Shown here: piece after piece, positions 291-58,389 of the stretch
How the letters are laid out: the number at the start of each line of letters is the position of its first letter
Position numbering within the stretch: position 1 is the first letter of the stretch
Origin: an uncultured Nitrospirota bacterium
GTDB taxonomy: Bacteria > Nitrospirota > Thermodesulfovibrionia > Thermodesulfovibrionales > JdFR-85
Reading direction: 5' to 3'
NCBI GenBank assembly: GCA_964515925.1
Contig: CAZEYP010000003.1
Coordinates: 21,628-85,627 of the forward strand
DNA: 64,000 nucleotides
Notes under the pieces: generated by a model
The model's input: the letters and a program-made list of their open reading frames with translations, nothing else
Told to the model about the DNA's origin: nothing
Databases searched by the model: none
Made by a program: the position numbers and the translations under genes

Positions 291-1121
291 ATGACAACCG
301 ATTCCTCAGAGGGTGCCATTGGGATTTTTGATTCAGGCATAGGCGGGCTTACAGTGGTAAGAGAGATAATGAACCTCATGCCCCATGAGGACCTGATTTA
401 TCTTGGTGATACTGCAAGGGTGCCCTACGGGATAAGGTCAAAGGAAACCGTAAGAAGATATGCGATGGAAAATACCAGATTTTTACTAAAGCAGAACATA
501 AAGATGATAGTGGTAGCCTGCAACACAGTCTCTGCTGTTGGGCTTGATGCTGTAAGAGGAGTAACCAGTGTTCCTGTGGTTGGGGTTTTAAGGCCAGGTG
601 CTCAGGCAGCTGTAAAGGCAACGGTGAACAAGAGGGTAGGGGTGATAGGCACTGAGGCAACCATCACAAGCAGTGCATACCAGAGGGCTATAAAGGAAAT
701 AGACAGTACTGTGGAGGTAAGCACAAGGGCCTGTCCACTTTTTGTTCCACTTGTTGAAGAAGGATGGCTTGATGGTGAGGTGGTAGAGGCCATAGCAAGC
801 AGATACCTTATGGAGCTGAAACAGAGCTGTATTGATACACTTGTGCTTGGCTGTACCCATTATCCATTGCTTAAAGGAACTATCAGTAAGGTTATGGGAG
901 ATGGGGTGAGGCTTATTGATTCTGCTGTTGAGACAGCAAAGGTGGTAAAAGAGCAGCTTGAGGTAGAGGGGAAGTTGAAAAAACACAGTAATTTCAGTGG
1001 CCGCAGGATTTATTTTGTAACCGACTCACCTGAGAGATTTAAAAGGATTGGCACATGGTTTCTTGGGCATGAGATAGAGGAGATATTTAAGGTGGAGATA
1101 GGGGCAGGAAGTAGAGGGTAG
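291..1121 (+). CDS. murI: glutamate racemase
   Basis: IGIFDSGIGGLTV, VVACNTVSA and LVLGCTHYP motifs carry the two catalytic Cys. ATG 291 is preferred over the TTG at 267 because it gives a typical N-terminus. Confidence 0.9.
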   Translation: MTTDSSEGAIGIFDSGIGGLTVVREIMNLMPHEDLIYLGDTARVPYGIRSKETVRRYAMENTRFLLKQNIKMIVVACNTVSAVGLDAVRGVTSVPVVGVLRPGAQAAVKATVNKRVGVIGTEATITSSAYQRAIKEIDSTVEVSTRACPLFVPLVEEGWLDGEVVEAIASRYLMELKQSCIDTLVLGCTHYPLLKGTISKVMGDGVRLIDSAVETAKVVKEQLEVEGKLKKHSNFSGRRIYFVTDSPERFKRIGTWFLGHEIEEIFKVEIGAGSRG

Positions 1122-1153
1122 GGTGTAGGGTGTAGCGTGTAGGGGATAGGGGG
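1111..1153. repeat. heptamer tandem array (GTAGGGT/GTAGCGT/GTAGGGG, 6 units)
   Basis: Reads gtagagg gtagggt gtagggt gtagcgt gtagggg atagggg. It covers the last codons and the TAG stop of murI. Confidence 0.9.
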
Positions 1154-1192
1154 ATATAAAAATAACAGGACATAAAATATCTGGAGGTCAAG

Positions 1193-1924
1193 ATGAGAAA
1201 GGACGGCAGAAGAAACGACCAATTAAGAGAGATCAAGGTCACAAGAGGGTTTATAAAACACCCCGAGGGCTCAGTACTCATTGAGATGGGTGACACCAAA
1301 GTAATATGCAATGCCTCGATAGAAGAGAGAGTGCCTCCCTTTCTTAAAGATACAGGGCAGGGCTGGGTAACCGCTGAGTACAGCATGCTTCCAAGGGCAA
1401 CATCGTCAAGAACCATGAGGGAGTCCTCAGCAGGTAAGATAGGTGGCAGAACTCAGGAGATTCAGAGACTCATTGGCCGAAGCCTTCGTTCGATAGTGGA
1501 CCTTAAAGGGCTTGGAGAAAGGACCATCTGGGTTGACTGTGATGTCATTCAGGCTGACGGTGGCACACGAACTGCTTCTATAACAGGTGGTTTCATTGCA
1601 CTTGTTGATGCGCTTCGTTATGGGGTGCAAAATGGTATATTTGAGCGAAACCCCCTCAGGGGATACCTTGCTGCAGTAAGCGTTGGGGTGGTTGACGGAG
1701 AGCCTATGCTGGATCTCTGCTATGAGGAAGACTACAGGGCTGAGGTGGATATGAATGTGGTGATGACCGATGAGGGAAGATTCGTGGAGATTCAGGGCAC
1801 GGCAGAGGGAGAACCCTTTGACAGGGATGTCTTTAACAGGCTTCTGGAGCTTGCAGAAAAGGGGATTATAGAGATAATCAACATTGAGAAGGAGCTCTTA
1901 GGTGAGGATACTTTTAGCTACTAA
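1193..1924 (+). CDS. rph: ribonuclease PH
   Basis: Full-length 243 aa with N-terminus [19 protein letters not shown] and a [11 protein letters not shown] motif. GGAGG lies 5 nt upstream of the ATG. Confidence 0.95.
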
Positions 1925-2492
1925 AAATAAAGGAAAGATAAGGGAGATGAATAGCCTCTTCCGTGGTGTTGGAGTCGAGTTTGTAGGAACAGATTCCCTT
2001 GACTCAGCACCAGAGGTGGTTGAGGATGGAAAGACATACCATGACAATGCACTTAAGAAGGCTATGACCTTTTATAAGCTAACAGGTCTTCCCACACTGG
2101 CAGAGGATTCAGGTCTTGAGGTAGATGCCCTTGGGGGTGCCCCGGGGGTTTATTCAGCCCGGTATGCTGGAGAGGATGCATCTGATGCAGAAAACAATAA
2201 AAAGCTACTTGAGGAATTAAAAGACATCAGGTCTGAAGATAGAACAGCTCGTTTTGTTTCAGTGCTTTGTCTGGTAATTGACGGTAAGATCCACTTTTTT
2301 GAAGGAGAGGTTAAGGGACGAATACTTGAAGAGCCAGAGGGAACTTCTGGCTTTGGATACGATCCTCTTTTCTGTCCCGAAGGATATGAGCACAGTTTTG
2401 CTGTGCTTGGAGAAGAGGTTAAAAACTCTATAAGTCATCGAGCAAGGGCTATTGAAAAATTAAAACAATTTCTTGAGGAGATACTTCAGTAG
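1902..2492 (+). CDS. rdgB: non-canonical purine NTP pyrophosphatase (RdgB/HAM1 family)
   Basis: [28 protein letters not shown] and SHRARA motifs. GTG start with an upstream GGAG. Follows rph, as is common. Confidence 0.9.
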
Positions 2493-2496
2493 AGAT

Positions 2497-4269
2497 ATGA
2501 ATATAAAAGAATATCTCAAGACCCATTTTCCATTAAATATATCGTTTAAGATCAAGGTTGGTACCCACACAGCACTGATTGCACTTGCAGTGGTTATTGG
2601 TGCACTCAGTGGTGGTGCCAATATGCTTTTCAGGACAACCCTGGAGTTTTGCAAGGAGATGATATTTCATAATGGCTCTGAACTGCTTGGAATAATGGAA
2701 GGTGGCTTTAACAGGGTTTTGATACCTCTTTTACCTGCATTTGGAGCCCTGCTGTTAGTGCCTCTATCCTACCGTTTTCCCGGCGAGGTAAATGGATACG
2801 GGTTTCCATCTTTTCTTGAGAAGGTAAACCTTCAAGACGGTGTCTTTAAACTAAGAACGATAATAATCAAGATCATTGCACCCAGTCTTACCATAGGCTC
2901 AGGTGGGTCTGCAGGAGTGGAAGGGCCGATTGCACAGATAGGCGGGAGCATTGGCTCTCTTATTGGACAGCTATTCAGGGTCTCTGGAAACAGGATGAAG
3001 CTATTGATTGCAGCAGGTGCTGCAGGTGGTATTGCTGCCACCTTTAATGCGCCCATTGCAGGTGTTATGTTTGCTACAGAGATAGTGTTGCTTGGTAACT
3101 TTGAGCTTACCTCCTTTGGTGTAATAGTTATCTCTGCTGGAATGGCAACGGCTGTTTCCAGGATTTATTACGGTTCGTCTCCTGTTTTTGCAGTGCCTCA
3201 ATACGACCTGAAGGGGATTTACGAGACACCCTTTTATCTGTTCCTTGGTCTCTTTGTTGGTTATGTAGCTGTCTTTTACATAAAGATATTTTATGGGATA
3301 AAGGACTGGTTTAGCTCACTGAAGATCAATCCTTATACAAAGCCAGTACTTGGTGCCCTTATGATGGGGGCAATAGGCATATTCTTTCCACAGATATTAA
3401 GCGATGGCTATGAGTATATTGAAGAGGCCTTTCGTGGAGACATGGTTTTTTCCATTATGTTTATTCTTATATTTCTGAAGATATTTGCCACCTCCATTAC
3501 CCTTGGCTCAGGTGGTGCAGGTGGTGTTTTTGCTCCTGCACTTTTTATTGGTGCCATGACTGGTGGGGCCTTTGGCGCCTTTGTCCATCACCTCTTCCCC
3601 ACTATAACCTCATCACCTGGTGCATATGCAATGGTTGGTGTTGGTGCATTTCTTTCCGCTGTTACCCATGCCCCGCTTACCGGTATGTTTCTGCTATTTG
3701 AGATGACAGGCAATTACAAGGTAATCATTCCCATTATGTTTGCAACCACTATAGGAATCTTTGTGGCCAGAAGGATGATAAAAGACTCTATTGATACCTA
3801 TGAGCTTTCCCGTAAGGGGATAGATATGCATGCTGGCCGTGAGGCAACCATACTTAGCACCATATATGTAAGAGATGTTATGAGGAGAGACTTCCTTACA
3901 GTTCGAGACAAGGTGAATCTGAAGGAATTCCTTGATCTGGTTATCAATGGAGGAGGGGGTTTTTACTATCCAGTTGTCAACTCAAAGGGCGAGATGGTGG
4001 GTATCATCTCCATGCAGGATGTACGAAAGGTGCTTTTTGAGGAGTATATTAAGGAGATAGTTACCGTTGGTGAGCTTGCTACAGAGGATGTCATGACGCT
4101 TTATCCTGATGATAATCTGATGACGGCAATGAAACTGTTTGCTGACCTTGATATAGAGGAAATTCCCGTGGTAAGCAGGGAAAACCCTAAACAGGTAATT
4201 GGAATGCTCAGAAGGGGAGATGTTATAACGGTTTACAACAGAGAGGTGTTGAGGAAACACTCTATTTAG
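2497..4269 (+). CDS. ClC-type chloride channel/transporter with C-terminal CBS pair
   Basis: GSGGSAGVEGP, FNAPIAGVMFATE and HAPLTGMFLLFEMTGNY are ClC selectivity-filter-type motifs. Two CBS-like repeats sit at the C-terminus. The start is ambiguous (ATG 2497 or TTG 2473). Confidence 0.85.
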   Translation: MNIKEYLKTHFPLNISFKIKVGTHTALIALAVVIGALSGGANMLFRTTLEFCKEMIFHNGSELLGIMEGGFNRVLIPLLPAFGALLLVPLSYRFPGEVNGYGFPSFLEKVNLQDGVFKLRTIIIKIIAPSLTIGSGGSAGVEGPIAQIGGSIGSLIGQLFRVSGNRMKLLIAAGAAGGIAATFNAPIAGVMFATEIVLLGNFELTSFGVIVISAGMATAVSRIYYGSSPVFAVPQYDLKGIYETPFYLFLGLFVGYVAVFYIKIFYGIKDWFSSLKINPYTKPVLGALMMGAIGIFFPQILSDGYEYIEEAFRGDMVFSIMFILIFLKIFATSITLGSGGAGGVFAPALFIGAMTGGAFGAFVHHLFPTITSSPGAYAMVGVGAFLSAVTHAPLTGMFLLFEMTGNYKVIIPIMFATTIGIFVARRMIKDSIDTYELSRKGIDMHAGREATILSTIYVRDVMRRDFLTVRDKVNLKEFLDLVINGGGGFYYPVVNSKGEMVGIISMQDVRKVLFEEYIKEIVTVGELATEDVMTLYPDDNLMTAMKLFADLDIEEIPVVSRENPKQVIGMLRRGDVITVYNREVLRKHSI

Positions 4270-4272
4270 GCT

Positions 4273-4362
4273 GTAGGGGGTAGCGTGTAGGGGGTAGTTT
4301 TTAGTTTTGAGTGTTTAGTGTTGAATCAACCATACCTCCCTACACCCTACACCCTAAAAATT
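4273..4362. repeat. inverted heptamer arrays (GTAGGGG-type + TAGTTTT-type ... TACACCC-type)
   Basis: Left arm gtagggg gtagcgt gtagggg gtagttt ttagttt; right arm tacctcc(c) tacaccc tacaccc taaaaat. Confidence 0.85.
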
Positions 4363-4376
4363 ACTGGGGGGTGATT

Positions 4377-5552
4377 ATGAAAGAGTTAAAAGGGATTGTG
4401 GAGATAAGGGCTGGCTCAATAGATTACTTTGGTGTTGGGGCGATTGATAAGGCTTTGGACATCATCAGGACTTACAGAGATAGAGGTGTGGAAAGGGTTG
4501 CAATAGTTACGGGCAGAAAGTCCTATCGTCTTAGTGGTGCCTGGAGTAAGGTTCAGGGAGTCTTGGAGAAGGAAAAACTGGAGTTTATCTCCTTTGACGG
4601 CATATCACCTAATCCAACGGTTGACCAGATAGATAAAGCAGTACAGCATCTCAAATCACATTCACCTCAACTTGTCATTGGCATTGGTGGCGGAAGCGTG
4701 CTTGATGCATCAAAGGTTATAGCCGTGCTTCTAAAAAATTTCGACCTCACTGCTCGTGACCTTTATATTAAAGGTAGAAGGCCCTTTGAGGCATTGCCCC
4801 TGTTTGCCATTAATCTGACCCACGGCACGGGCTCTGAGATAGACCGTTATGCTGTGGCAACGGTGCCTGAGTTGAAGGACAAGTCAGGGCTTGCCCTTGA
4901 CTGTATGTACCCGGAATATGCCATTGACGATCCCTCGCTGATGCTTACCCTTCCAAAGGAGCAGCTACTTTATACATCCCTTGATGCCCTGAACCACCTT
5001 GTTGAGGCAGCAACTACCACTCTTTCCTCTTCATACACGGTAATGCTTGCCCGTGAGGGGATAGGTGCCATTGCAAGGTGGCTGCCTGTTGCAGCAAAGG
5101 AACCTGAAGATTTAGAGGCTCGTTACTGGCTCCTTTATGCCTCTGTGCTTGGTGGAATGGCAATTGACTCTGCGGTGGTTCATCTCACCCATCCCCTTGA
5201 GCACACACTCAGTGCACTGAAGCCAGAGATTGCCCATGGTCTTGGCCTTACCGTGCTTCTACCCTCAGTTGTCAGGGCAATATACCCTGCTGTCAGCGAT
5301 ACCCTTCAGGAGATACTGATGCCCATAGTGGGTGAGTGCAACTCTTCAGATGAGATGGCCACAGGGCTGCAGAGCTGGATATCTGGACTTGGAGTGAAAG
5401 AGAAATTAAAGGACATCGGATTTTCTGAGGATGATATTGATGATATAGTTCATTATGTCATGGCTTCACAGGAGGGAGGAGGTTCCATTTGTCTTGCCCC
5501 TGTGGAGGTGGACAGTGCTCTGATTAAGAGGATATTTTTAGAGTCCCTTTAG
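4377..5552 (+). CDS. iron-containing (group III) alcohol dehydrogenase family protein
   Basis: GIGGGSVLDASK motif and His-rich metal site (HPLEHTLS). ATG 4377 is preceded by GGGGGTG. The upstream part of track ORF 4311 lies in repeat sequence. Confidence 0.8.
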   Translation: MKELKGIVEIRAGSIDYFGVGAIDKALDIIRTYRDRGVERVAIVTGRKSYRLSGAWSKVQGVLEKEKLEFISFDGISPNPTVDQIDKAVQHLKSHSPQLVIGIGGGSVLDASKVIAVLLKNFDLTARDLYIKGRRPFEALPLFAINLTHGTGSEIDRYAVATVPELKDKSGLALDCMYPEYAIDDPSLMLTLPKEQLLYTSLDALNHLVEAATTTLSSSYTVMLAREGIGAIARWLPVAAKEPEDLEARYWLLYASVLGGMAIDSAVVHLTHPLEHTLSALKPEIAHGLGLTVLLPSVVRAIYPAVSDTLQEILMPIVGECNSSDEMATGLQSWISGLGVKEKLKDIGFSEDDIDDIVHYVMASQEGGGSICLAPVEVDSALIKRIFLESL

Positions 5553-5569
5553 CCTGTTGATAGAAGCAA

Positions 5570-6253
5570 CTAACGAACATCTTTGTAATATCTCACAAGC
5601 CGCTGGGGACTAACCCCAAAGATACCGTAAGATACAGCCAGTATCCAGTCTCTCAGCACACCATACAGGATACCCTCTTTTTCAAATCTGCGTGCAGAAA
5701 CAGTAATTGGCTCTCTGAGGAACTCTATTCTTCCATGTTTTTTAGCCCGTCTTGAAAACTCTATATCCTCCATAAGTGGGATATCTTTGAAACCACCAAG
5801 CATCAGGAAGTCCTGCTTCTTGATAAACATACCCTGGTCACCATATGCAATAGAGGTGATTCTTGAGCGCAGGTTTGCTCCCCTCTCAATCAATCTGTAG
5901 CATACCCCCTCTTCTCTGTAGCTTATATCAAAGGCACCAAGTATGGTGTTTTTCTTCGTTAATGTGTTTCTTATGAGGTAAAAGGCTCTGTTGGGGGGCA
6001 CACAATCGGCATGTAGAAAAAACAGTATTTCTCCTTCTGCCCTCTCTGCCCCGTGGTTCATCTGCCTTGCCCTTCCCCGTAGTGACTGAAAGACCTTTGA
6101 AGTAAATTTTTTTGCTATTTCGACTGTGCTATCAGAGCTCCCTCCATCAACTACGATAAGTTCCTCATAGGGACCTGTATTAAGCTTTGAAAGGGTTTGA
6201 TGAAGCAGGGGGGCTTCATTCAGCACAGGCATAACAATGCTGATAGTCTCCAT
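5570..6253 (-). CDS. family 2 glycosyltransferase (resembles the rSAM/selenodomain-associated subgroup)
   Basis: SIVMPVLNE...ELIVVDGGSSDSTVEIA...RGRARQMNHGA...LFFLHADCVPP is a GT-A/GT2 signature. The subgroup assignment is from memory. Confidence 0.75.
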   Translation of the reverse strand: METISIVMPVLNEAPLLHQTLSKLNTGPYEELIVVDGGSSDSTVEIAKKFTSKVFQSLRGRARQMNHGAERAEGEILFFLHADCVPPNRAFYLIRNTLTKKNTILGAFDISYREEGVCYRLIERGANLRSRITSIAYGDQGMFIKKQDFLMLGGFKDIPLMEDIEFSRRAKKHGRIEFLREPITVSARRFEKEGILYGVLRDWILAVSYGIFGVSPQRLVRYYKDVR

Positions 6254-6280
6254 TGAAAAAGTATAACATAGGAATCGGGG

Positions 6281-6442
6281 TATAAGGTGTAGGGGGTAGG
6301 GTATAGGGGGGAGGGGGTAGTAAAAATCCCTCCCCCCTATACCCCTTGAACCCTCATCTTCAAATCCTAAATTCTAAACAATCCCAATTCACTAACTTAC
6401 TCAAGTTTCCTTTAGAATTTAGTGCTTCGTGCTTAGAATTTG
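6281..6442. repeat. two consecutive heptamer-built palindromes (G/C-rich, then TAGAATT-type)
   Basis: A perfect 14-bp inverted repeat (6302-6315 / 6328-6341) and a perfect 12-bp inverted repeat (6367-6378 / 6411-6422). Confidence 0.9.
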
Positions 6443-6462
6443 TTTTCCCTACCTCCTGATGT

Positions 6463-8439
6463 TTAGACGATTCTTTCCTTAACAAGGGCATCCACTACAG
6501 AAGGGTCTGCCAGTGTTGATGTATCGCCAAGGTCCTCAATGTCACCACGGGCAATCTTACGAAGGATCCTTCTCATGATCTTACCCGAGCGGGTCTTTGG
6601 AAGACCTGGTGCAAACTGAAGTTTATCTGGTTTTGCAATTGGCCCAATGGTTTCCCTTACATGCTGGACCAGCTCATTTTTAAGTGAGTCATCAGGATCT
6701 GTTCCATCTTTGAGCACCACATAGGCATAGATACCCTCTCCTTTAACATCATGTGGATAGCCCACCACGGCAGCCTCTGCCACTGCCTCGTGGCTTACGA
6801 GGGCAGACTCAACCTCTGCTGTGCCAATACGGTGTCCCGAGACATTAAGCACATCGTCAATACGACCCATGAGCCAGAAGTCTCCATCTTCATCCACACG
6901 GGCTCCATCTCCTGTGAAGTATCTGCCAGGGAAACGGCTGAAGTAAACTTCCTTAACCCTCTTGTTTTCAGGGTCACCATAGGTTCCACGGATCATACCA
7001 GGCCAGGGTTTTTCTATTACAAGATAACCACCCACATTTGTATCAGCAGGACTGCCGTCTTCTTTTAATACCCTTGGAAGAACACCGGGGAATGGTCTGC
7101 ATGCAGAGCCTGGTTTCAGGGTCATGGCACCAGGAAGTGGTGTTATAAGGATTCCACCTGTTTCTGTCTGCCACCAGGTATCAACGATTGGAAGCTTACC
7201 CTTTCCCACACGGGTGTGATACCACATCCACGCCTCGGGATTAATGGGTTCACCAACAGTTCCAAGGAGTTTCAGGGAGCTGAGGTCATATTTTTCAACC
7301 CACTGCTCACCTTCTCTCATGAGTGCCCTTATAACAGTAGGAGCTGTGTAAATCTGATTGACCTTATGTTTGTCAACAATATCCCAGAACCTTCCAGGGT
7401 CAGGATAGGTGGGCACACCCTCAAACATCAAAGAGGTGGCTCCTGCTGAAAGTGGGCCATATACTATATAACTGTGTCCTGTTATCCATCCGATGTCTGC
7501 TGTGCAGAAAAAGATGTCTTCTTCGTGATAATCAAAGATCCACTGGAAGGTCAGATTTGTGTAAAGCAGATACCCACCCGTGGTATGAAGGACTCCTTTT
7601 GGTTTACCTGTTGAGCCTGATGTATAGAGGATAAAAAGCGGGTCTTCAGCGTCCATCTCCTCAGGCTGACAGTATATGCCTATGTCGTCAGCACTCATCT
7701 CCTCATGCCACCACAGGTCTCTTGAGGAATCGAAGTTTACATCTCTGCCAGAGCGTTTTACAACGATGACCTTCTCTACGGTGGGACATCCCGAAAGTGC
7801 CTCATCACAGTTTGACTTAAGAGGAACAAACCTTCCCCCCCTGATTCCCTCATCAGCAGTGATAACCATCTTTGCCTCACAGTCGTTTATCCTGTCACGG
7901 AGAGACTGTGCAGAGAACCCACCGAAGACAACACTATGAATGGCACCAATCCTTGCACAGGCAAGCATGGCTATGGGAAGCTCCGGGATCATGGGGAGAT
8001 AGATGGTTACCCTGTCTCCTCTTGAAACACCGTATTTTTTCAGGACATTTGCAAACTTGTTTACCTCATAGTACAACTGCTGATAGGTATAGGTCTTATA
8101 ATTGCCATCATCTGCTTCCCATATCAAGGCAGCCTTGGTGCGTCTCGTTGAGTCAAGGTGGCGGTCAAGACAGTTGTAAGAGGCGTTTAACTTACCCCCC
8201 TGAAACCACTTAATGTAGGGCCTTTCAAAGTCATATTCAAGAACCTTATCCCATTTTTTGTACCATGTAATATTTTTTTCAGCCATTTCAGCCCAGAACC
8301 CCTCGGGGTCTTCTATTGAACGACGATAAAGCTCCTCATACTCTGCCATTGATTTGATGTGAGCCATTTTTGAAAACTCTTCAGGCGGTGGAAATACCCT
8401 TTGTTCCTCCATTAATACCGATAGTCCTTTGTCTGACAT
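6463..8439 (-). CDS. acs: acetyl-CoA synthetase (AMP-forming)
   Basis: 658 aa with [11 protein letters not shown] and WWQTETGG motifs and a C-terminal SGKIMRR. AAGGAGGT lies 4 nt upstream of the ATG. Confidence 0.95.
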
Positions 8440-12423: not shown

Positions 12424-12486
12424 TTCTGATATAATTAATTTTAGATTTTAGATTTCTGATTTAAGATTTATAGTTTTAGATTTTAG
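12424..12486. repeat. heptamer tandem array (ATTTTAG/ATTTCTG/ATTTAAG type, about 9 units)
   Basis: Reads ttctgat ataatta attttag attttag atttctg atttaag atttata gttttag attttag. Confidence 0.8.
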
Positions 12487-12558
12487 TACAGGATTCTATA
12501 TAAGGTTAATTGTTTAATAAAAGCCTGAAAGATTTTATAAAAACCACAGGGAGTGAAA

Positions 12559-25441: not shown

Positions 25442-25861
25442 ATGGATAAGGACTTTGAGATTCTTGATATCTCTGGCGATGTGGGTATAAGAGTATTTGG
25501 TGAGAATCTTGAAAAGCTTTTTATAAATGCTGCCAGAGGGTTATACCATTTAATAACTGAAAACAGTAATATAAACTCCTCAAAGACTGTTGATGTCAAC
25601 GTTTATGCAGAAAACCTTGATGGTTTGCTTGTTGGCTGGCTGAATGAACTGATTTTCCAGTTTGATACATACGGGTTCCTGGGCAGGGAGATTGAGATAA
25701 AAAATCTTTCAGAAAACAGGATTGAGGCAACCATTTTTGGTGAGGACTTTGACCCTCAAAGACACGAAAAGGGCCTTCTTCTTAAGGCAGCGACCTACCA
25801 TAACCTTAAAATAGAAAAACAAAACGGTCTCTGGAGTGTAGAGGTTATTTTTGATATATAA
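25442..25861 (+). CDS. archease (RtcB activator/chaperone)
   Basis: 139 aa with N-terminal FEILDISGDVGIRVFG and C-terminal KAATYHNLKI. Located directly upstream of rtcB. Confidence 0.85.
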   Translation: MDKDFEILDISGDVGIRVFGENLEKLFINAARGLYHLITENSNINSSKTVDVNVYAENLDGLLVGWLNELIFQFDTYGFLGREIEIKNLSENRIEATIFGEDFDPQRHEKGLLLKAATYHNLKIEKQNGLWSVEVIFDI

Positions 25862-26047
25862 ATTGCGTTTATTGCGTTGATAGCGTTAATTGCGTTTATC
25901 GAGTTCATTGCGTTCTTTGCGTTAATAGCGTTAGTTGAGTGTAGGGATTCTGGTTTTACTACACCCTACACGCTACTCCCTACACCCTGTTTTTTTACAC
26001 CCTGAAGTGTTTAGAATTTAGAATTTAGAAATTAGGATTTGAAAATT
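25861..26047 (+). repeat. composite element: nonamer array (NNTTGCGTT x8-9) + TACACCC-type heptamers + TAGAATT-type heptamers
   Basis: 9-nt periodicity over 25861-25941; tacaccc tacacgc tactccc tacaccc over 25960-25987; tttagaa x3, attagga, tttgaaa over 26010-26044. Confidence 0.9.
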
Positions 26048-26061: not shown

Positions 26062-27510
26062 ATGTCAGGGCAGGTTACCATAGAAAGGATTGATGAAACA
26101 AGACTCAAGGTGCCCATGGGTTATGTTCAGGGAATGAGGGTTGAAGGTATTGTGTATGTTGACAGAGTGCTCCAGCAGTATTTAGAGCCAGATGCCATCA
26201 AACAGGTTGCCAATGTTGCCACACTGCCAGGCATAGTTGGCCACTCTTTTGCAATGCCTGATGTTCACACAGGTTATGGTTTTTCTATTGGAGGGGTAGC
26301 TGCCTTTGATGTCAACGATGGGATAATTTCACCAGGTGGTGTTGGCTACGACATTAACTGAGGGGTAAGGCTCCTGAGGAGCAACCTCACACGTTCTGAG
26401 GTGCTCCCCAGGATAAGGGACCTCGTGGAGGTCCTGTTTAAAGAGATACCCTCTGGGGTTGGTTCAAAAGGAAGGCTGAAGCTCTCAAGAAAAGACCATG
26501 AGAGGCTCCTTCAAAAGGGTGCCCGCTGGGCAGTAGAGCAGGGTTATGGAACAGCAGATGACTTACAGTATATTGAATCTGGCGGTGCCATAGAAGGTGC
26601 TGAGCCTTCATTGATTAGCGAAAAGGCCTACGAACGGGGAAGAGCCCAACAGGGAACCCTTGGCTCTGGAAATCACTTTCTTGAGATACAGTATGTGGAA
26701 GAGGTTTACGACGAGAAGGCTGCCAGCATATTTGGTCTTTTCCCGGAGCAGATAACCCTGATGATTCACACTGGCTCAAGGGGATTTGGACATCAGGTAT
26801 GTACTGACTTTTTACAGATTATGGAAAGGGCTGTCAGGAAATACGGGATAAGTCTTCCTGATAGAGAACTTGCCTGCGCACCCTTTAACTGCCAGGAGGC
26901 ACAGGATTATTTTGCTGCAATGAAGGCAGCAGCGAATTACGCATGGGCAAACCGTCAGTGCATAATGCATTGGTGTAGAGTTGCCTTTATGAAGGTTTTG
27001 AGTGTTTCTGAGGGTGAACTTGGTATGCAGATTGTTTATGATGTTGCTCATAATATTGCAAAAGTGGAAGAGCATACTGTGGACGGTAAGAAAACTAAAC
27101 TTATAGTGCACCGTAAAGGTGCAACAAGGGCATTTTCTGCAGGACATCCCGAGATATCGGAAAAATACAGAGATATTGGTCAACCAGTGTTAATACCTGG
27201 AGATATGGGCAGGGCATCCTATGTTCTGGTAGGTACTGAAAAGGCAATGAAGGAGACCTTTGGCTCTACATGCCATGGTGCAGGAAGAGTGCTTTCAAGA
27301 CATCAGGCCATTAAAAGGGCAAAGGGTAGGGCTATCTGGAGAGAGATGGAGGATGCAGGTATACTGGTAAGAAGTGCTGGAAAGAAGACCCTTGCAGAGG
27401 AGATGTCGGAAGCTTACAAGGATATTTCAAATGTGGTAGATGTGGTAGAGAAGGCAGGCATATCAAAGAAGGTTGCAAGGTTGCGTCCTCTGGGGGTTGT
27501 AAAAGGTTAA
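26062..27510 (+). CDS. rtcB: RNA-splicing ligase RtcB with an in-frame TGA (codon 100) at the conserved active-site Cys: candidate selenoprotein
   Basis: Track ORFs 26062..26361 and 26401..27510 share one frame, with a single TGA at 26359-26361. The sequence GGVGYDIN[TGA]GVRLLRSNL matches the RtcB motif [10 protein letters not shown]. Downstream His motifs are intact ([23 protein letters not shown]). The RtcB call is confident; the Sec interpretation carries about 0.55. Confidence 0.8.
26378..26407 (+). promoter_or_regulatory. candidate SECIS-like hairpin downstream of the rtcB UGA
   Basis: GGAGC-A-ACCUCA [CACGUUC] UGAGGU-GCUCC forms 11 bp with one bulged A. The stem starts 17 nt after the UGA. 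The loop lacks the classical leading G, so the call is tentative. Confidence 0.4.
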
Positions 27511-27513: not shown

Positions 27514-28734
27514 ATGAGTCAAACAATCCTTAACATCATTGTCGTCCTCATACCTCTTCTGCTTTTAATCCTTTTTCTTTACAGCTTCCGATACCTTAAA
27601 AGGGCAAGCAAACTGAAGGAGGAGATGAAACAATCAGAAGTGGGGTTTGTTGTTGATACATTTCACGAGCTTGTTGCAAAGTTAAAGGAAAAGGAAAAGG
27701 AGCTTGAGGAGTTAAGAAAAAAGGCAGAGGAGAGGGCAGACGATGTAGTAAGCTACAGTGACAACATAATAGAAAGTGTGCCAAGCGGTGTGGTGAGTTT
27801 TAATAATGAGCTTATAATAACCAGTGTTAACTCTTCTGCATTGAAGATACTTGGGCTTGAGGGGAAGGAGATAGAGAGGAAAAGGTATTCAGAGGTATTT
27901 TATGAACCTGTGAAGGGATTAATAGAGAAACAGGATATAGTTAAGCGTGCAGAGTATCTTTATGAGACTGGTAAAGGAAAGAGATGGCTTGGTCTTACTA
28001 TTTCGCCGCTTTATAACAGAAAGAAAGAAAAGATAGGAAAGGTGCTGATATTTAGTGACCTTACCGAACTTAAAACCCTTGAAAGGCAGGTCAGGTTAAG
28101 AGAGTGGCTTTCTTCTCTTGGAGAGGTCTCCCTTGGTATTGCTCATGAGTTGAGAAACCCGATGGCAGTAATTTCAGGCTACAGTAAGCTTCTTAAAAAG
28201 GATGCATCTGAAAGACAGCAGGCAATAGTTGATGCTATAGCAGAGGAAATCAATGCCATGGACCGCATAATTAATGACTTCCTTTCATTTGCGAAACCTG
28301 TTGTGCCTCAGACAGAGATGGTGAATCTTAGAGAAATTGTTACAGAGATTTTACAGGGACAACTTGATGGGAAAAGTTCAATAGACTGTGATGAAAGGCT
28401 TGGAGATTGTGTGATTAAGACTGATCCCGTACTTTTTAAACAGGCTGTTTCAAACATCATAAGAAATGCAATTGAAGCTATGCCAACAGGGGGGAGGCTC
28501 TTGGTTGAACTTAAATGTTCTGAAAGTAGGGCAATTTTTATAGTAGAGGATACTGGAAGCGGTATCCCTGACGAGATAAGGGAAAAGATATTTTTGCCCT
28601 TTTTTACAACTAAAGACAGAGGTACTGGCCTGGGTCTTTCGATTGTGCATAAAAACATTACTACCCTTGGCGGAAACATCAGGGTTGAGAGTAAAAAGGG
28701 TATGACCCGTTTTATTGTTGAGATACCCGGTTGA
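27514..28734 (+). CDS. membrane-anchored PAS sensor histidine kinase
   Basis: N-terminal TM helix, coiled coil, PAS ([19 protein letters not shown]), H-box [13 protein letters not shown] and G-box GTGLGLSIV. Starts 3 nt after the rtcB stop. Confidence 0.85.
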
Positions 28735-28774
28735 TTTCGGATATAAGATTTCAGATTTATGATGTCAGATTTGG
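28733..28774. repeat. heptamer tandem array (GATTTNN, 6 units)
   Basis: Reads gatttcg gatataa gatttca gatttat gatgtca gatttgg. It starts inside the TGA stop of the kinase gene. Confidence 0.8.
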
Positions 28775-35200: not shown

Positions 35201-35460
35201 AATCCTAAATTCTAAGCACCAATTTCTAAACCCTTAAGGGTGTAGGGGGTAGGGTGTAGTAAAAACTCCCCTACTTTCTTAAAACCCCAAACACTTATCT
35301 TCAAATTCTAAATTTCTAATATCTAAATCCTAAACAAATCCCAAGCTCTAAATTTCAAACTACAAACTCACTTATTTTCATTCAATCGTAACTTTTAACA
35401 AAAACTAACGCAATCAACGCAATGAACGCGATAAACGCAATTAACGCAATCAACGCAATA
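35201..35460 (-). repeat. composite element (same architecture as 25861-26047, opposite strand)
   Basis: On the plus strand: AATTCTA-type heptamers, GTAGGGG-type heptamers, more AATTCTA-type units, then AACGCAANN nonamers x6 (35403-35460). Confidence 0.9.
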
Positions 35461-38042: not shown

Positions 38043-38063
38043 ATGCCCTCCTCCTTTCTAATT

Positions 38064-38189
38064 ATAGGGTGTAGGGGGTAGGGGGTAGTTATTAGTTTTA
38101 GTTTTGAATGCTTAATAAATGACCTTAACTTATCACTCAAAACTCAAAATTCACTACACCCTACACGCTACCCCCTATTCCCTATCTTT
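38064..38189. repeat. large imperfect palindrome built from heptamer arrays
   Basis: Left arm atagggt gtagggg gtagggg gtagtta ttagttt tagtttt; right arm aaactca aaactca ... tacaccc tacacgc taccccc tattccc tatcttt. Confidence 0.88.
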
Positions 38190-38238
38190 ATTATATCAGA
38201 AAAGGGTTTTATTTACTTTTCTCTGGTCGGAGATTCAC

Positions 38239-41282: not shown

Positions 41283-41337
41283 GTATTGGTTATTGGTGTA
41301 TTAGTTACTACACCCTACACGCTACCCCTTACCCCCT
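41283..41337. repeat. heptamer arrays (GTATTGG-type followed by TACACCC-type)
   Basis: Reads gtattgg ttattgg tgtatta gttac tacaccc tacacgc tacccct taccccc. Confidence 0.85.
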
Positions 41338-41342
41338 AATAT

Positions 41343-45909: not shown

Positions 45910-45984
45910 TGGCTGGGGCGGGAGGACTCGAACCTCCAAATGGGAGAGCCAAAATCTCCTGCCTTGCCGTTTGGCTACGCCCCA
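45910..45984 (-). tRNA. tRNA-Gln (anticodon UUG), CCA encoded
   Basis: Hand-folded cloverleaf: acceptor UGGGGCG/CGCCCCA, a 3-bp D stem, anticodon arm GGAGA-UUUUGGC-UCUCC, and T arm GGAGG-UUCGAGU-CCUCC. Confidence 0.88.
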
Positions 45985-46770: not shown

Positions 46771-46848
46771 CGGGGCGTGGCGCAGTCTGGTTAGCGCACT
46801 CGCTTGGGGTGCGAGAGGTCGGCCGTTCGAATCGGCTCGCCCCGACCA
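46771..46848 (+). tRNA. tRNA-Pro (anticodon GGG), CCA encoded
   Basis: Acceptor CGGGGCG/CGCCCCG, anticodon arm CUCGC-UUGGGGU-GCGAG, and T arm GGCCG-UUCGAAU-CGGCU. Confidence 0.9.
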
Positions 46849-50944: not shown

Positions 50945-52594
50945 CTAACATATCTGCCTCTTCTGTAGCAGTTCCTCTGCATGTTTCAGGGATGTCTCTG
51001 TCACCGAGCCGCTGAGCATTCTTGCAATCTCTCTTGTTCTCTCTTCTTCAGATAAGACATCTATGCTAAAGTGGGTGCTCTGCTTTTTTTCCTTCTTTGT
51101 TACACGAAGGTGATGGTCAGCCAGAGAGGCAATCTGGGCGAGATGGGTAATGCAGATAACCTGATGCAGCCTGGAGATATCAAGAAGTTTTGCACCCAGG
51201 GCTTCTGCAGTTTTCCCCCCAATTCCAGCATCTACCTCATCGAAGACCAGCACGGGCACCCCTTCTGAAGATGCAAAGATGCCTTTAATGGCAAGCATTA
51301 CCCTTGATAGCTCACCTCCGGAGGCAACCCTGTTGAGTGGCTTTACAGGCTGGCCAGGATTGGCAGAAAAGACAAACTCCACACCCTCAAGCCCGTGCTC
51401 TGAAATGCCCGTATCTTTCAGACTTACGCTGAAACGGGCATTCTTCATTGCAAGGTCCTTCAGGGTTTCAGTAACCAGCCTTTCTATTTCCTTTGCGGCT
51501 CTTTTTCTCTCCTCACTTAAAAGCTTTGCCCTGTCCATAAGATGTTTTTCTGTTTCTTCTATATCTTCTGCAAGATGACCCTCTGTTTCTTCCATACCAA
51601 GAAGCTCATCAAGTTCCTTTTTTGCAGTATCCCTGTACTGGAGTATCTCCTCAATGGTGTCACCGTATTTTCTTTTCAGCTTTTCAATCTGCTCAAGCCT
51701 GTTTTCAATCTGCTCAAGCCTCAAAGAGTCAGCCTCGTAGGTATCCCTCAGCCCTCTAAGTTCGTGGGCTGCTTCATATAAGAGTGCCTCTGCATCATCT
51801 ATCATCTTCAGCACTGAAGAGGCAGAGTCATCAATCTTTAATATATCCTCTATGGATTGTTTTATTACAGACAGGGTGTCAAGCACCGAGTCTTCCTGCT
51901 CCTTGAGCCTGTTAAGTGAGCCCTCTGTTAGTTGCACAAGATGAGTAAGGTTTCTCTGAACCTCTCGCTCTTTAATGAGCTCATCTAATTCCTCGACACT
52001 CAGGTCTGCCTGATCAATCTCCGCTATCTGGTACTGAAGGAGGTCAATCCGCTGGCTTCGCTCTCTTGCCCTTTGTTTCAGCTCATAAAGGGTCTTTTTA
52101 AGGCTTCTAAGCTTCAGATAAAGCCCTCTTACCTCCTCTGCAAGCTCAGTAAGCCCACCAAAGCTGTCTAATAGATACTGTTGAACAGCAGGTTTAAGAA
52201 GGCTCTGGTGTTCATGCTGGCCATGGATGTCTATTAACTGTTCACCCACTGCTGACAGGCTTTTGAGGGAGATGGCCCTGTCGTTTATATATGCCCTGCC
52301 TTTACCGTTTTTTGAGATTATCCTTCTAATTATAAGCAGGTCCTCATCGGTTGAGATACTTTCAGGAAGGCTTACTCCATCAGGCAGTTCAAAGACTGCC
52401 TCTATTTCTGCCTCCTCTGCCAGGGGATGAATAAACTCTGCCCTTGCCCTTCCGCCAAGAACCAGCTCAAGGGCATTTATGATTAATGACTTTCCAGCAC
52501 CGGTCTCACCGGTAATTACATTAAGCCCCCTGTCGAAGGGAATCCTGGCTCTTTCAACGATTGCAAAGTTTCTGATAGAAAGTTCTCGAAGCAT
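50945..52594 (-). CDS. recN: DNA repair protein RecN
   Basis: Walker A GETGAGKS, a long coiled coil, the signature ASGGELSRVMLA, and VLVFDEVDAGIGG. Confidence 0.92.
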   Translation of the reverse strand: MLRELSIRNFAIVERARIPFDRGLNVITGETGAGKSLIINALELVLGGRARAEFIHPLAEEAEIEAVFELPDGVSLPESISTDEDLLIIRRIISKNGKGRAYINDRAISLKSLSAVGEQLIDIHGQHEHQSLLKPAVQQYLLDSFGGLTELAEEVRGLYLKLRSLKKTLYELKQRARERSQRIDLLQYQIAEIDQADLSVEELDELIKEREVQRNLTHLVQLTEGSLNRLKEQEDSVLDTLSVIKQSIEDILKIDDSASSVLKMIDDAEALLYEAAHELRGLRDTYEADSLRLEQIENRLEQIEKLKRKYGDTIEEILQYRDTAKKELDELLGMEETEGHLAEDIEETEKHLMDRAKLLSEERKRAAKEIERLVTETLKDLAMKNARFSVSLKDTGISEHGLEGVEFVFSANPGQPVKPLNRVASGGELSRVMLAIKGIFASSEGVPVLVFDEVDAGIGGKTAEALGAKLLDISRLHQVICITHLAQIASLADHHLRVTKKEKKQSTHFSIDVLSEEERTREIARMLSGSVTETSLKHAEELLQKRQIC

Positions 52595-52680
52595 TTTTTA
52601 ACTTCATTAAATTATTTTTATTTGTTTAATTATGATAAAATATCTTGGATTTTAAGTAAAAGGGGGAGATATAAAATAAT

Positions 52681-52821
52681 ATTGCGTTCATTGCGTTTAT
52701 TGCGTTAATTGTGTTTATCGGGTTCATTGCGTTCATTGAGTTTATCGCGTTAAATGGGTTTATTGGGATTGTGGTGGAGTGTTTTTACTACTCCCTACAC
52801 GCTACACCCTACACCCTGAAG
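52681..52821 (+). repeat. composite element: nonamer array (ATTGCGTTN x about 10) + TACACCC-type heptamers
   Basis: attgcgttc attgcgttt attgcgtta attgtgttt atcgggttc attgcgttc attgagttt atcgcgtta aatgggttt, then tactccc tacacgc tacaccc tacaccc tgaag. Confidence 0.9.
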
Positions 52822-54308: not shown

Positions 54309-54313
54309 GTGAG

Positions 54314-57082: not shown

Positions 57083-57106
57083 AACTACACTCTGCCCCCT
57101 GCCTTT

Positions 57107-57115
57107 TGATATAAT
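57107..57115 (+). promoter_or_regulatory. extended -10 element (TGATATAAT) 9 nt upstream of ATG 57125
   Basis: Matches TGnTATAAT. No SD before the start codon. Confidence 0.45.
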
Positions 57116-57124
57116 TTCACTGTT

Positions 57125-58345
57125 ATGAAAAGGACAATATTTATTATAACGGTTTTTCTTTTCCTTGTTCCCGCCTACTGCTTTGCGAAGACCTACAGTG
57201 TGCAGACAGCAACCTATGCCCTTTTGGCAAGAACCTATGCCTTCAGGCATTTTGATTACATGGAAAAGTTTATCAAAGACTCTCCAGGGCTTCATGTAAG
57301 ATTACTTAAGGGAAAAAAGTACCTCGTTGTAAGGGTTGGAGACTTTAACAGTTACAAAGAAGCTCTGGTATTTATAAAAAAGTTATGGGGTGTGGTCAAA
57401 GACCCCTTTGTCCTTGACAACACAAAGGAAAATGAGATGGAGGTACTAAAGGAGAAAGGCATTGAGAAAGTAGAGACTGTAAAGAATAAAGGGTTAAAAA
57501 AGTCTTCCACTGAGAGAGTTTTAAATAAGCCTGAGAAATCAAAAAGCAGGATTGAAGAACGAGTCGTATACACCATTGAGCTTCAGACTTATAAGAAGTT
57601 AAGGCGGGCAATAAAAGAGTATAAAAGGGTAGAGAAAATCCTGCGTAAAGACGACCTTAAAACATTAAGACTGGAGCGACACGGCGACCACTATAGCCTT
57701 CGTGTTGGAGCCTTCAATACATACGGGGAGGCAAGAAGTTTTCTCAAAGACTATAAAGACAAACTCAACGGATTAATAATTCAGGCTAAATATGGTCCAA
57801 AAGGGGTGGTGCTTTCCTATAAGGATACTGAAACAATTGAAGAAAGTGAAAATAAATCTGAAAAGGGCAAGCAGAAAGAGGTAGAGCAGATAATCGCCAC
57901 TGTAGAGAGCCAGCTTGATGACGAGGACTTTGGCAGGGCAGCATCAGTGCTCCGTGAGGCTGTCATGCGGTGGCCAGACAATCCTGAACTTCATGCCCTT
58001 TATGGAGAGACCTTGCTAAACATGGGGTTTACAACCAATGCCTACAGGGAATATAAAAAGGCCATTGAGATCTCTCCAGATGTAAGCGAATATCACTCAG
58101 GGCTTGGCTACAGTTTGCTTAACATCTATATGGAAAAGGCTCAGCAGGCAATTGATGCATTTAAGAAGGCACTTGAGATTGACCCCGACAATGTGGATGC
58201 CCTGGAGGGACTTGGCACTGTATATGTGAGTATAGACAGGCGAGACCTGGCTGAAGAGATATATCAGCGACTGAAGGAGCTTGACCCGGTTGCAGCAAGA
58301 AGGCTGAGAGATGTTATAGACTCAGGCCTGCAGATAGGGAGATGA
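57125..58345 (+). CDS. secreted protein with two SPOR-like domains and C-terminal TPR repeats
   Basis: Signal peptide. Two repeats of the type YSVQTATY...VVRVGDFNSYKEA and YTIELQTY...SLRVGAFNTYGEA. TPR-like ...AYREYKKAIEISPD... / ...AIDAFKKALEIDPDN... Confidence 0.65.
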   Translation: MKRTIFIITVFLFLVPAYCFAKTYSVQTATYALLARTYAFRHFDYMEKFIKDSPGLHVRLLKGKKYLVVRVGDFNSYKEALVFIKKLWGVVKDPFVLDNTKENEMEVLKEKGIEKVETVKNKGLKKSSTERVLNKPEKSKSRIEERVVYTIELQTYKKLRRAIKEYKRVEKILRKDDLKTLRLERHGDHYSLRVGAFNTYGEARSFLKDYKDKLNGLIIQAKYGPKGVVLSYKDTETIEESENKSEKGKQKEVEQIIATVESQLDDEDFGRAASVLREAVMRWPDNPELHALYGETLLNMGFTTNAYREYKKAIEISPDVSEYHSGLGYSLLNIYMEKAQQAIDAFKKALEIDPDNVDALEGLGTVYVSIDRRDLAEEIYQRLKELDPVAARRLRDVIDSGLQIGR

Positions 58346-58347
58346 AC

Positions 58348-58389
58348 TGATTTATGATTTTAGATTTTAGATTTATGATTTATGATTTA
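58348..58389. repeat. heptamer tandem array (TGATTTA/AGATTTT, 6 units)
   Basis: Reads tgattta tgatttt agatttt agattta tgattta tgattta. On the minus strand it encodes the last 5 codons and the stop of clpA. Confidence 0.85.

Follow-up and report, generated by a model that had tools for sequence, protein, structure and literature searches.

Heptamer and nonamer tandem arrays in the spacers of a Nitrospirota genome and their organisation into recurrent composites

We analysed a stretch of 64,000 nt from an uncultured Nitrospirota bacterium (contig CAZEYP010000003.1, positions 21,628 to 85,627; hereafter the window), in which head-to-tail arrays of 7- or 9-nt units lie between the genes at 11 loci. 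Composites of such arrays, which keep a fixed order and include the same non-tandem linkers, recur at unlinked loci. This pattern is that of dispersed, copied elements and not of independent slippage products, and thus the modules are elements that get copied between spacers. The reading we favour, with a probability of about 0.6, is that the arrays are short-unit satellites of the type of the short tandemly repeated repetitive (STRR) sequences and long simple sequence repeats (SSRs), which have been assembled into REP/BIME/BOX-like mosaic elements in the leaders and trailers of mRNAs.

Placement, unit families and order of the arrays

A gene map was built from open reading frames (ORFs) and the gene calls of the Joint Genome Institute (JGI). 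Intergenic DNA amounts to ~3 kb of the 64 kb, or ~5% of the window. The arrays make up ~1.2 kb, about 40% of it, and are present in 10 of the 18 spacers of at least 60 nt, in agreement with a first-pass annotation of this DNA which had assigned them a large share of the non-trivial spacers. The same annotation had called them intergenic save for the last few codons of some genes, and their positions on the gene map bear this out: period-7 arrays of at least 2.7 copies are confined to spacers or reach no further into a gene than its last codons or its stop. They show the non-coding bias by which long SSRs are recognised when the length of the unit is not divisible by three. The arrays are non-coding. 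For the nonamer arrays a coding role was considered and rejected on reading the sequence, as their frames read IAF/IAL or Cys-Val-X and neither a start nor a frame is conserved over the four copies. Gene callers extend ORFs through arrays, because the (CTACACC)n strand is free of stops in all frames, and this calls for caution in annotation. The GTG-start ORF at 4311 (4311-5552), which overlaps the second array, is such an over-extension, and the JGI call starts at 4377. In the relative L277 (21297-21650) the alanyl-tRNA synthetase (AlaRS) is called with 925 aa, not ~875 aa.

Tandem Repeats Finder was run on the window and the raw sequence was read at each of the 11 loci. Both recover an array at every one of the loci that had been listed, and the raw sequence contains the unit families that had been named. 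The families are GTAGGGN/NCCCTAC, TTTAGAA/TTTAGGA, TGATTTA/AGATTTN, TAGTTTT/GAGTGTT, GTATTGG and the nonamer NATTGCGTT. According to Tandem Repeats Finder the periods are 7 or 9, with higher orders of 14, 21, 18 and 27, and copy numbers range from 2.7 to 8.6. Most arrays have 7-nt units; 9-nt units occur at three window loci (25861-25937, 35407-35460 and 52681-52765), and a unit length of 8 is found in some relatives. These are the properties of long SSRs and STRR-type repeats, namely short head-to-tail units, most commonly heptanucleotides, in arrays beyond chance length. Compared with dinucleotide-preserving shuffles, the degenerate pattern TACMCSCTACMCSCTAC has 10 matches (0.00 expected), TTGCGTTNNTTGCGTT has 7 (0 expected) and TAGAATTTAGRATTT has 3 (0 expected). 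Moreover, point changes grade the families into each other within single arrays, for example GTATTGG to TATAGTG to TGTAGGG in the relative L244, or GTAGGGG to GTAGTTT to TTAGTTT, which is the pattern expected from mutation followed by re-amplification.

In the composites the modules follow a set order. Read in the sense direction of the gene downstream, it is nonamers, TTTAGRA array, short G-rich arm (G-arm), TTTTTACTAC, NCCCTAC array, TTTAGAA array, ribosome-binding site (RBS) and start, where both the TTTAGRA and the TTTAGAA array are optional. Four composites of the type (NATTGCGTT)n-linker-TTTTTACTAC-(NCCCTAC)n were found, at 25861, 35201 (minus strand) and 52681 of the window and at 13601 of L251, the DNA of the same contig to the right of the window. 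With L251 the analysis extends 7 kb beyond the window, to 71 kb overall. The composites at 52681 and L251:13601 have a non-tandem linker of ~60 nt in common (AAATGGGTTTRTTGGGRTTG..GGAGTGTTTTTACTAC), and an nhmmer profile of the linker region gave E-values of 6e-27, 7e-20 and 6e-18 for the three seed copies and 6e-6 for the copy at 35201, with high scores for copies in this genome only. A second type, the hairpin composite (GTAGGGN)(TAGTTTT/GAGTGTT)-loop-(AACACTC/AAAACTA)(NCCCTAC), is present at 4273 and 38064 and twice in L277, and a third has the form (AAATTCT)n...(TTTAGAA)n. Finally, six loci in three genomes have TTTAGRA arrays that open with one common head, TGTTTAGRATTTAG. Thus, the earlier description of arrays concatenated like modules, which is evident in the raw sequence of the loci, was correct in substance but understated the organisation: order and orientation are fixed, and whole composites recur with their linkers.

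The orientation of the arrays relative to gene starts, gene ends and strand, a mapping that the first-pass annotation had proposed, turned out to be strict for the G/C-rich and the TTTAGRA arrays. We tabulated 14 G/C-rich arrays in 10 spacers of the window and of the 7 kb to its right. In 14 of 14 cases, the coding strand is G-rich after stops and C-rich before starts. Several of the post-stop G-rich arrays begin 0-5 nt from the stop, and most of the 14 lie within 50 nt of a stop or a start. TTTAGRA arrays near starts are in sense orientation in nine of nine cases (window, L242, L244 and L277), and the complementary AAATTCT form occupies the distal post-stop position only. In this genome, the nonamers of all four composites lie distally and in sense orientation. 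The 11 loci of the window are as follows.

1111-1153, plus strand: GTAGGGN array of ~6 units (Tandem Repeats Finder: 1118-1144 with period 7, 1111-1151 with period 21), G-rich on the coding strand; overlaps the stop of the Asp/Glu racemase gene (267-1121); a -10-like GATATAAA lies 3' of it at 1153-1160, followed by the RNase PH start at 1193.
4273-4362, plus strand: hairpin composite of GTAGGGG x3.6 (4273-4297), TAGTTTT/GAGTGTT x4 (4295-4324), a loop and CCCTACA x2.7 (4338-4356); arms 4274-4292 and 4338-4356 are 89% complementary, with a minimum free energy (MFE) of -37 kcal/mol; the CLC channel stop (4269) is on one side, the start of the iron-type alcohol dehydrogenase (Fe-ADH) (4377) on the other.
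6281-6442, minus strand: composite with, on the sense strand, an AAATTCT-type arm (6410-6442), a TTTAGAA arm (6354-6378), a hairpin and a CTACCCC array; the hairpin is perfect over 17 bp (6299-6315 and 6328-6344, 100% complementary) with the loop ATTTTTACTAC; lies 3' of the acetyl-CoA synthetase stop (6463), and the CTACCCC array ends 28 nt before the glycosyltransferase start (6253).
12424-12486, plus strand: ATTTTAG/ATTTCTG/ATTTAAG array x7, directly after the -10-like TGATATAAT (12427-12435) and upstream of a gene starting at 12553.
25861-26047, plus strand: composite between archease and rtcB, with NATTGCGTT nonamers x8.6 (25861-25937), a short G-arm, TTTTACTAC, CTACACC x4.3 (25959-25988), a T7 run and TTTAGAA x4.4 (26010-26047); ends 15 nt before the rtcB start (26062).
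28733-28774, no strand: GATTTCA/GATTTAT-type array x5.7, which occupies the convergent spacer between a histidine kinase gene (ends 28734) and a DAGK/PAP2 gene (ends 28797).
35201-35460, minus strand: 278-nt composite with nonamers x6 (35407-35460), a linker, a TTTAGRA array (35303-35336), a G-arm, TTTTTACTAC, CTACNCC (35237-35259) and TTTAGAA (35201-35232); ends 13 nt before the DUF2905 start (35188).
38064-38198, minus strand: hairpin composite after a conserved -10-like TGATATAAT (38190-38198, minus strand), with GTAGGGN (38152-38183), GAGTTTT (38135-38153), a loop, AAAACTA (38086-38105) and CTACCCC (38064-38088), then an RBS and a start at 38042.
41283-41338, minus strand: G-arm GGGGGTAAGGGGTAGCGTGTAGGGTGTAG (41308-41338) and CCAATAC-type array (41283-41307); the G-arm begins 5 nt past the stop of a gene of 113 aa, and the locus lies upstream of alaS (start 41252).
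52668-52821, plus strand: nonamer composite in the divergent spacer common to recN, with a -10-like GATATAAA (52668-52675), nonamers x8 (52681-52765), the linker AAATGGGTTTATTGGGATTGTGGTGGAGTGTTTTTACTAC and CTACNCC x4.3 (52788-52817); ends 17 nt before the yggS-like start (52834).
58348-58391, no strand: TGATTTA/AGATTTT array x6.3, which occupies the convergent spacer between a TPR gene and a clpA-like gene and overlaps the clpA-like stop.

Recurrence, turnover, probable transcription and folding

The window is part of the JGI metagenome contig Ga0117756_1000052 (93,844 bp), and five assemblies of one strain were available (JGI samples 3300009408, 3300023503 and 3300023507; Logan runs SRR5189948 and SRR5189949). 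They are 99.96-100% identical and have no gap in any array, and since identical arrays were obtained in five independent assemblies, an assembly artefact is ruled out. Slippage polymorphism between strains, which had been suggested as a check, was not seen, the five assemblies of the one strain being free of indels in the arrays. More distant relatives differ by the replacement of whole modules and by unit number. Two further array loci lie within the 7 kb to the right of the window on the same contig: a nonamer, linker and CTACNCC composite before a ferritin gene, and a G-arm/C-arm inverted pair which occupies a convergent spacer. The unit families of the window are also found in the related genomes L242, L244, L254, L276 and L277. 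The units thus recur outside the window, as the first-pass annotation had demanded of a genuine repeat family.

To follow single arrays we used syntenic loci from relatives with 96, 91, 89, 81, 77, 72 and 69% identity in flanking proteins. AlaRS and RecN homologues carry the labels Nitrospirae, Nitrospirota, Thermodesulfovibrionales or Dissulfurispira; a cyanobacterial origin of the window was therefore rejected, and the organism is a Thermodesulfovibrionales-like member of the Nitrospirota. The queH and DUF2905 genes abut or overlap in L242, L244 and L245, and in the window the 278-nt composite lies between them. No recognisable target-site duplication or terminal inverted repeat (TIR) accompanies this insertion when it is compared with the relatives. 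In the yggS/recN spacer, the half with the recN promoter is conserved in all four genomes compared. On the yggS side, the window, L276 (91% RecN identity) and L277 (72%) have arrays, and L275 (74%) has none. The spacer between the histidine kinase and DAGK/PAP2 genes is 10 nt long and array-free in L242. Both the window and L277 have the AGATTTN family, identically oriented, in the convergent spacer of the TPR and clpA-like genes. Upstream of alaS, five different states were found:

window: G-arm and CCAATAC array.
L254 (96% identity): reverse nonamers.
L242 and L244: AAATCCT/TTTAGAA pair.
L277: full hairpin composite and reverse nonamers.
L245 and L246: no array.

The G-arm of this spacer (ATATTAGGGGGTA.GGGGTAGCGTGTAGGG.GTAG) is near-identical in the window and in L277, which argues that some arrays are old. 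No arrays occur in the 36 kb of syntenic DNA of L245 and L246 (77% and 69% AlaRS identity). Heptamer arrays are even denser than in the window in L047 (DYJL01000008.1), a metagenome-assembled genome (MAG) of 42% GC which is labelled Nitrospira japonica; its positions 1-8000 alone hold at least eight arrays of different families. The GC content of Nitrospira japonica is near 59%, and given the 42% found here the label looks doubtful.

The arrays occupy leader and trailer positions, and the sequence before some of them points to transcription. At three loci (12424, 38064 and 52681) they start right after a -10-like box, one of which is conserved in four genomes. The conserved box, T(T/A)(C/G)TGATATAATAAA, lies in the spacer that follows the DUF2914 gene; between this box and the RBS there are arrays in the window, L242 and L244, and the same leader is array-free in L245. 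The motif GATATAAW has 21 matches in the window against 5 expected, a four-fold excess, and probably represents the (extended) -10 consensus of promoters in this lineage; sites include 12428, 38190 (minus strand), 52668 and 57108, often in the form TGATATAAT, and many lie inside upstream genes. Their position directly after -10-like boxes suggests that the arrays are transcribed as leaders, and many of them are probably parts of mRNA leaders. A consensus scan for sigma-70 promoters and terminators gave counts that do not exceed those of shuffles, and no intrinsic terminator was found by consensus in any array spacer of the 25.3-42 kb stretch scanned. A T7 run is present only in the 25861 composite, where it does not directly abut a stem. 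We also considered leaderless transcription from the TATAAC/TATACT boxes beside the ATG at 35188 and 6253, for which the spacing is wrong or unprovable.

Inverted pairs of arrays, which the annotation had noted as frequent, are present at 4273/4338, 6299/6328, 6367/6411, 38064/38153 and 38096/38125. Two spacers with such inverted partners fold far better than shuffles on either strand: 6254-6462 (MFE -78.6 kcal/mol, z -5.05) and 38043-38238 (MFE -64.4 kcal/mol, z -5.96). The inverted arms can pair in several registers. Occlusion of the Shine-Dalgarno sequence by the C-rich array, which we considered as a function, is not supported, since the predicted folds have the C-arm paired with the G-arm and the Shine-Dalgarno sequence free. 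In an Rfam search of the whole window at the gathering score, the only match was a tRNA; none fell in the array spacers, and no known RNA family or riboswitch was found in the leaders. ARAGORN predicts two tRNAs, tRNA-Gln (45910-45984) and tRNA-Pro (46771-46848), of which the Rfam gathering threshold reports the first only.

Known repeat systems and competing explanations

The arrays were likened by the annotation to the heptameric STRR repeats of heterocystous cyanobacteria, which were reportedly described by Mazel et al. in 1990. The units of STRR1-3 are CCCCAGT, TTGGTCA and CAACAGT. The likeness is sound, as both are tandem heptanucleotide arrays in intergenic DNA with several unit families per genome. 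However, the arrays are not STRR repeats in the strict sense: the host belongs to the Nitrospirota rather than to the heterocystous cyanobacteria, no unit family of the window matches STRR1-3, and here the arrays, together with a nonamer family and non-tandem linkers, form recurrent composites of fixed order and orientation. Nor are STRR repeats the only analogue, as had been thought, since published long SSRs and the GGGNATC, TAACTGA and hmw heptamers also fit. We found no published report of such arrays in Nitrospirota, and regard them as a dense, multi-family, mosaic variant of the known STRR/long-SSR phenomenon in a phylum for which no report was found. CRISPR arrays have direct repeats of ~24-48 nt and unique spacers of similar length; the units here measure 7-9 nt and are contiguous, without spacers, and the arrays are not CRISPR, as the annotation had stated. 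The REP/BIME and BOX elements are dispersed, intergenic, transcribed and palindromic, with few module types in a set order, and BOX has a tandem internal module. Modules here are micro-tandem arrays of 7-9-nt units rather than units of 35-50 nt; they are not known to resemble those elements in sequence, and no RAYT-like gene was seen in the 71 kb examined. The statement that the arrays are not REP/BIME-like holds for single palindromes only; in concept, the composites that form hairpins come close to BIME/BOX mosaics.

Among long SSRs, whose units measure 5-11 nt, heptanucleotide repeats are the commonest class in most repeat-rich prokaryotic genomes and possibly stem from polymerase slippage (Mrazek 2007, as cited in PMC4679880). 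The placement seen here is also that of the GGGNATC and GGGGA(C/T)T heptamers, which Rehm et al. 2015 (PMC4692102) described in Xanthomonas and Nostoc. They are ~90% intergenic. Up to 50 nt past a stop it is the coding strand that is G-rich in them, and up to 50 nt ahead of a start it is the non-coding strand. They frequently form convergent inverted pairs, prefer four units and form G-quadruplexes (G4) in vitro (PMC4692102). The arrays studied here obey the same positional rule (14 of 14) and include convergent inverted pairs. As in the published case, they vary strongly in length and sequence at given spacers between close relatives, and in both cases the repeats are G-rich, largely intergenic heptamer SSRs whose associated genes are functionally incoherent. 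In contrast to the published case, AT-rich and nonamer families are interleaved with the G-rich ones here, and their density is about five times higher, with ~14 G/C-rich arrays per 71 kb against 186 in a genome which we take to be ~5 Mb in size.

Heptamers upstream of starts are known from MacGregor 2015 (PMC4679880): TAACTGA repeats occur there in marine Beggiatoaceae, some cyanobacteria and Bacteroidetes, as one unit family with 169 sets in the BOGUAY genome. Like some of the arrays here, they are direct repeats in forward orientation, with 2-6 copies, and lie just a few nucleotides before starts; the downstream genes are functionally unrelated, and a translational or leader role has been proposed for both. 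Their unit sequence differs, and theirs is a single family, whereas we find at least five families, inverted pairs and composites. Finally, the (ATCTTTC)n heptamers of hmw1A and hmw2A in H. influenzae are transcribed in the 5' untranslated region, form a long hairpin and are cut by RNase III. Copy-number change there needs transcription and the hairpin, and expression is tuned by copy number (Rapun-Araiz et al. 2025; PMC12721329). Both systems have a heptamer SSR between promoter and start, and the long hairpin of hmw involves a complementary G-rich arm; hmw offers an experimentally tested precedent for the role that the hairpin composites of the window may have. Unlike hmw, which is one contingency locus with copy-number variation in populations, the arrays here occupy many housekeeping loci and do not vary in the five assemblies.

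On the reading that we favour, slipped-strand mispairing or unequal exchange would create the units and alter their copy number, and re-amplification of mutated units would give the graded families and the 14-, 21- and 27-nt periods. Inverted partner arrays may originate by template switching. Composites are copied between spacers and are inserted, lost or replaced, with ectopic recombination, gene conversion or another form of mobilisation as candidate routes. The arrays lie after stops and between -10-like box and RBS and, judging by these boxes, are probably transcribed as parts of trailers and leaders, and selection on the transcript or the template may have fixed their orientation (G-rich after stops, C-rich before starts, AU-rich TTTAGRA in sense at starts). 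Paired arms would form long, register-flexible hairpins which are possibly cleavable by RNase III, insulating or mRNA-stabilising between genes, and AU-rich and C-rich parts would act as unstructured leaders that tune translation. The most likely functions, if hmw, REP/BIME and BOX are a guide, are processing or stabilisation by hairpins and tuning of translation, and individual array copies are most likely dispensable on evolutionary time scales.

Several observations weigh against this reading. Six of the 10 array spacers that were folded show no excess folding (z ~0), so a role of hairpins cannot be general. Upstream of alaS in L254 and L277 the nonamers are antisense and RBS-proximal; occurring in both orientations, the nonamer family is not strictly oriented. 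Copy number is constant in the five assemblies, which are of one strain, and ongoing slippage is thus no more than a candidate process; transcription, processing and effects on expression are deduced from sequence features. Neither TIRs, a target-site duplication nor an associated transposase was found (queH/DUF2905 insertion; 71 kb examined). Moreover, the rapid replacement of arrays in many spacers is as compatible with neutral or selfish DNA as with a function.

One possible but distinctly less probable explanation is that the arrays are binding sites for a global nucleic-acid-binding factor, either an RNA-binding protein of the S1, Csp or CsrA type or a DNA-binding regulator, which reads unit and orientation. 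The strict orientation would follow directly, as would the position of TTTAGRA and C-rich arrays immediately upstream of the RBS or start. The unit families persist down to ~72% RecN identity while single arrays turn over, eight of the nine nonamer positions are conserved and one is free, and a similar argument has been published for TAACTGA (PMC4679880) and the Nostoc heptamers. Such a factor would have to cope with at least five unrelated unit families, for which several readers would be needed. The downstream genes in the window and right flank have no common function, orthologous genes in close relatives tolerate a different array or none, and no candidate protein was identified.

About equally improbable is that the composites are non-autonomous mobile elements of the kind of miniature inverted-repeat transposable elements (MITEs) or REPINs, transposed by an enzyme encoded elsewhere, with the arrays as their internal structure. 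The same composites with shared non-tandem linkers at unlinked loci, the clean filled and empty sites at queH/DUF2905 and yggS/recN and the palindromic architecture are all compatible with this. Furthermore, prokaryotes reportedly seldom have dispersed families of non-coding satellites, and such families have been taken as a sign of transposition (Subirana and Messeguer 2019). The composites, however, lack TIRs, and the one comparable insertion lacks a target-site duplication; their boundaries are not sharp, module content differs from copy to copy, and the 71 kb contain no transposase, RAYT or reverse transcriptase. The same pattern could result from ectopic recombination between arrays.

A more far-reaching version, which we consider doubtful, is that the composites are self-propagating satellite cassettes: non-autonomous, made up entirely of heptamer and nonamer arrays, without terminal repeats or target duplications, and copied between a stop and the next RBS by a transcription- or hairpin-dependent mechanism, with their own leader and trailer signals. 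Copying might then resemble the dependence of hmw on RNase III and transcription, or use a dedicated polymerase or reverse transcriptase. The 278-nt insert that splits the formerly abutting queH and DUF2905 would be an example of an element that brings its own leader and trailer signals, and together such cassettes would form a punctuation code for operons throughout the lineage, where other intergenic DNA is almost absent from the genome.

That the repeats act through G-quadruplexes, or i-motifs on the opposite strand, as proposed for GGGNATC in Xanthomonas and Nostoc, is still less likely. The (TGTAGGG)n unit has the G3N4 form, and the positional rule and the convergent inverted pairs are those of Rehm et al. 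(PMC4692102). The tract counts weaken this explanation: four G3 tracts with loops of at most 7 nt (G3+N1-7 x4) are present in only 3 of the 14 arrays, the modal array has three tracts, many contain the tract-breaking unit GTAGCGT, and the preference for four units seen in the published case is absent. The AT-rich and nonamer families would be left unexplained. The weakest alternative, purely neutral slippage junk or an assembly artefact without organisation, draws on the array-free syntenic regions of L245 and L246 and the replacement of many arrays between close relatives, yet it is very improbable and as regards an artefact largely refuted, given the five identical assemblies, the orientation in 14 of 14 and nine of nine arrays, the conserved junctions and linkers, the retention of some arrays at orthologous spacers down to 72% RecN identity and a genome that is otherwise extremely compact.

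Bacterial heptanucleotide repeats have been noted for 35 years, without an accepted function or an account of how they spread to hundreds of spacers. Such questions can be addressed unusually cleanly in this lineage, which combines ~5% of intergenic DNA, ~40% of it arrays, with strict orientation rules, linker-tagged composites and a graded series of relatives that shows filled and empty sites, replacement and conservation. The system separates slippage in place from copying between sites, and it could be used to test selfish DNA against RNA-level punctuation and protein-binding codes.

Wider distribution and other features of the region

An exact-pattern scan with the query CTACMCSCTACMCSCTAC, covering one genome per species, gave loci L004-L121. 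Among the matches listed, tandem GTAGGGT/GTAGGGG/GTAGCGG arrays are spread over genomes and MAGs whose labels span at least eight phyla, namely Cyanobacteria, Nitrospirae, Planctomycetota, Acidobacteriota, Gemmatimonadales, Verrucomicrobia, Bacteroidota and several proteobacterial classes. Some of these matches are concatenated with other heptamers (L034, L098 and L028) or form inverted pairs (L008 and L014), and one, L121, has TTTAGGG units of the plant telomere type. The species of the window is not among the matches listed, and the scan is informative on distribution, not on taxonomy. Heptamer satellites appear to be much more widespread than the STRR literature suggests. A metagenome scan for three consecutive nonamers matched 120 unrelated contigs, partly in coding and partly in intergenic DNA; none has the heptamer families of the window or DNA similarity to it, and no further part of this genome was recovered. 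Nonamers in unrelated contigs indicate that NNTTGCGTT arrays arise repeatedly. The combination of families seen in the window is absent from the GTAGGGT-type and nonamer loci that were compared elsewhere. A scan of viral contigs gave no match to CTACACCCTACACGCTAC, and the viral nonamer matches from the same samples were discarded as a coding repeat in an unrelated phage contig of 52% GC.

In the spacer between recX and the next gene, relatives have palindromic elements that are not tandem (L244 6264-6543; L242 9413-9512). Two copies of CAAAGGGGCTCTGCCCCTTTGAAACCCC flank an assembly gap in L244, L242 has CCTGCGGCAGGCCGCAGGG, and hairpins of the CCTGCGGAAAGCCGCAGGG type occur in L277. These palindromes are a separate REP-like family in the clade.

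The DNA to the right of the window includes a defence-type cluster (L251 16681-19405, equivalent to window positions ~67.9-70.6 kb) with VapB/PIN pairs, Csx3 and a CARF-Card1 nuclease. These genes are CRISPR-ancillary, but the stretch retrieved shows no CRISPR array.

In rtcB (26062-27510, plus strand), a single frame is broken by one in-frame TGA at 26359-26361, presumably at the position of the conserved metal-binding Cys of RtcB. A stable hairpin at 26372-26413, which starts 11 nt past the TGA (MFE -26 kcal/mol, z -3.0), is placed as a bacterial selenocysteine insertion sequence (SECIS) would be. Judged from the sequence, the gene probably encodes a selenocysteine-containing RtcB rather than being a split gene or a pseudogene.

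Finally, the recN-like gene (50945-52594, minus strand) contains a perfect 21-nt tandem duplication of TTTTCAATCTGCTCAAGCCTG at 51681-51721 (x2, 100% match), which results in an in-frame duplication of 7 aa in RecN. In L276 (91% identical), a related two-copy 21-nt repeat, in reverse complement, lies at about the same place of recN (L276:1004-1045).

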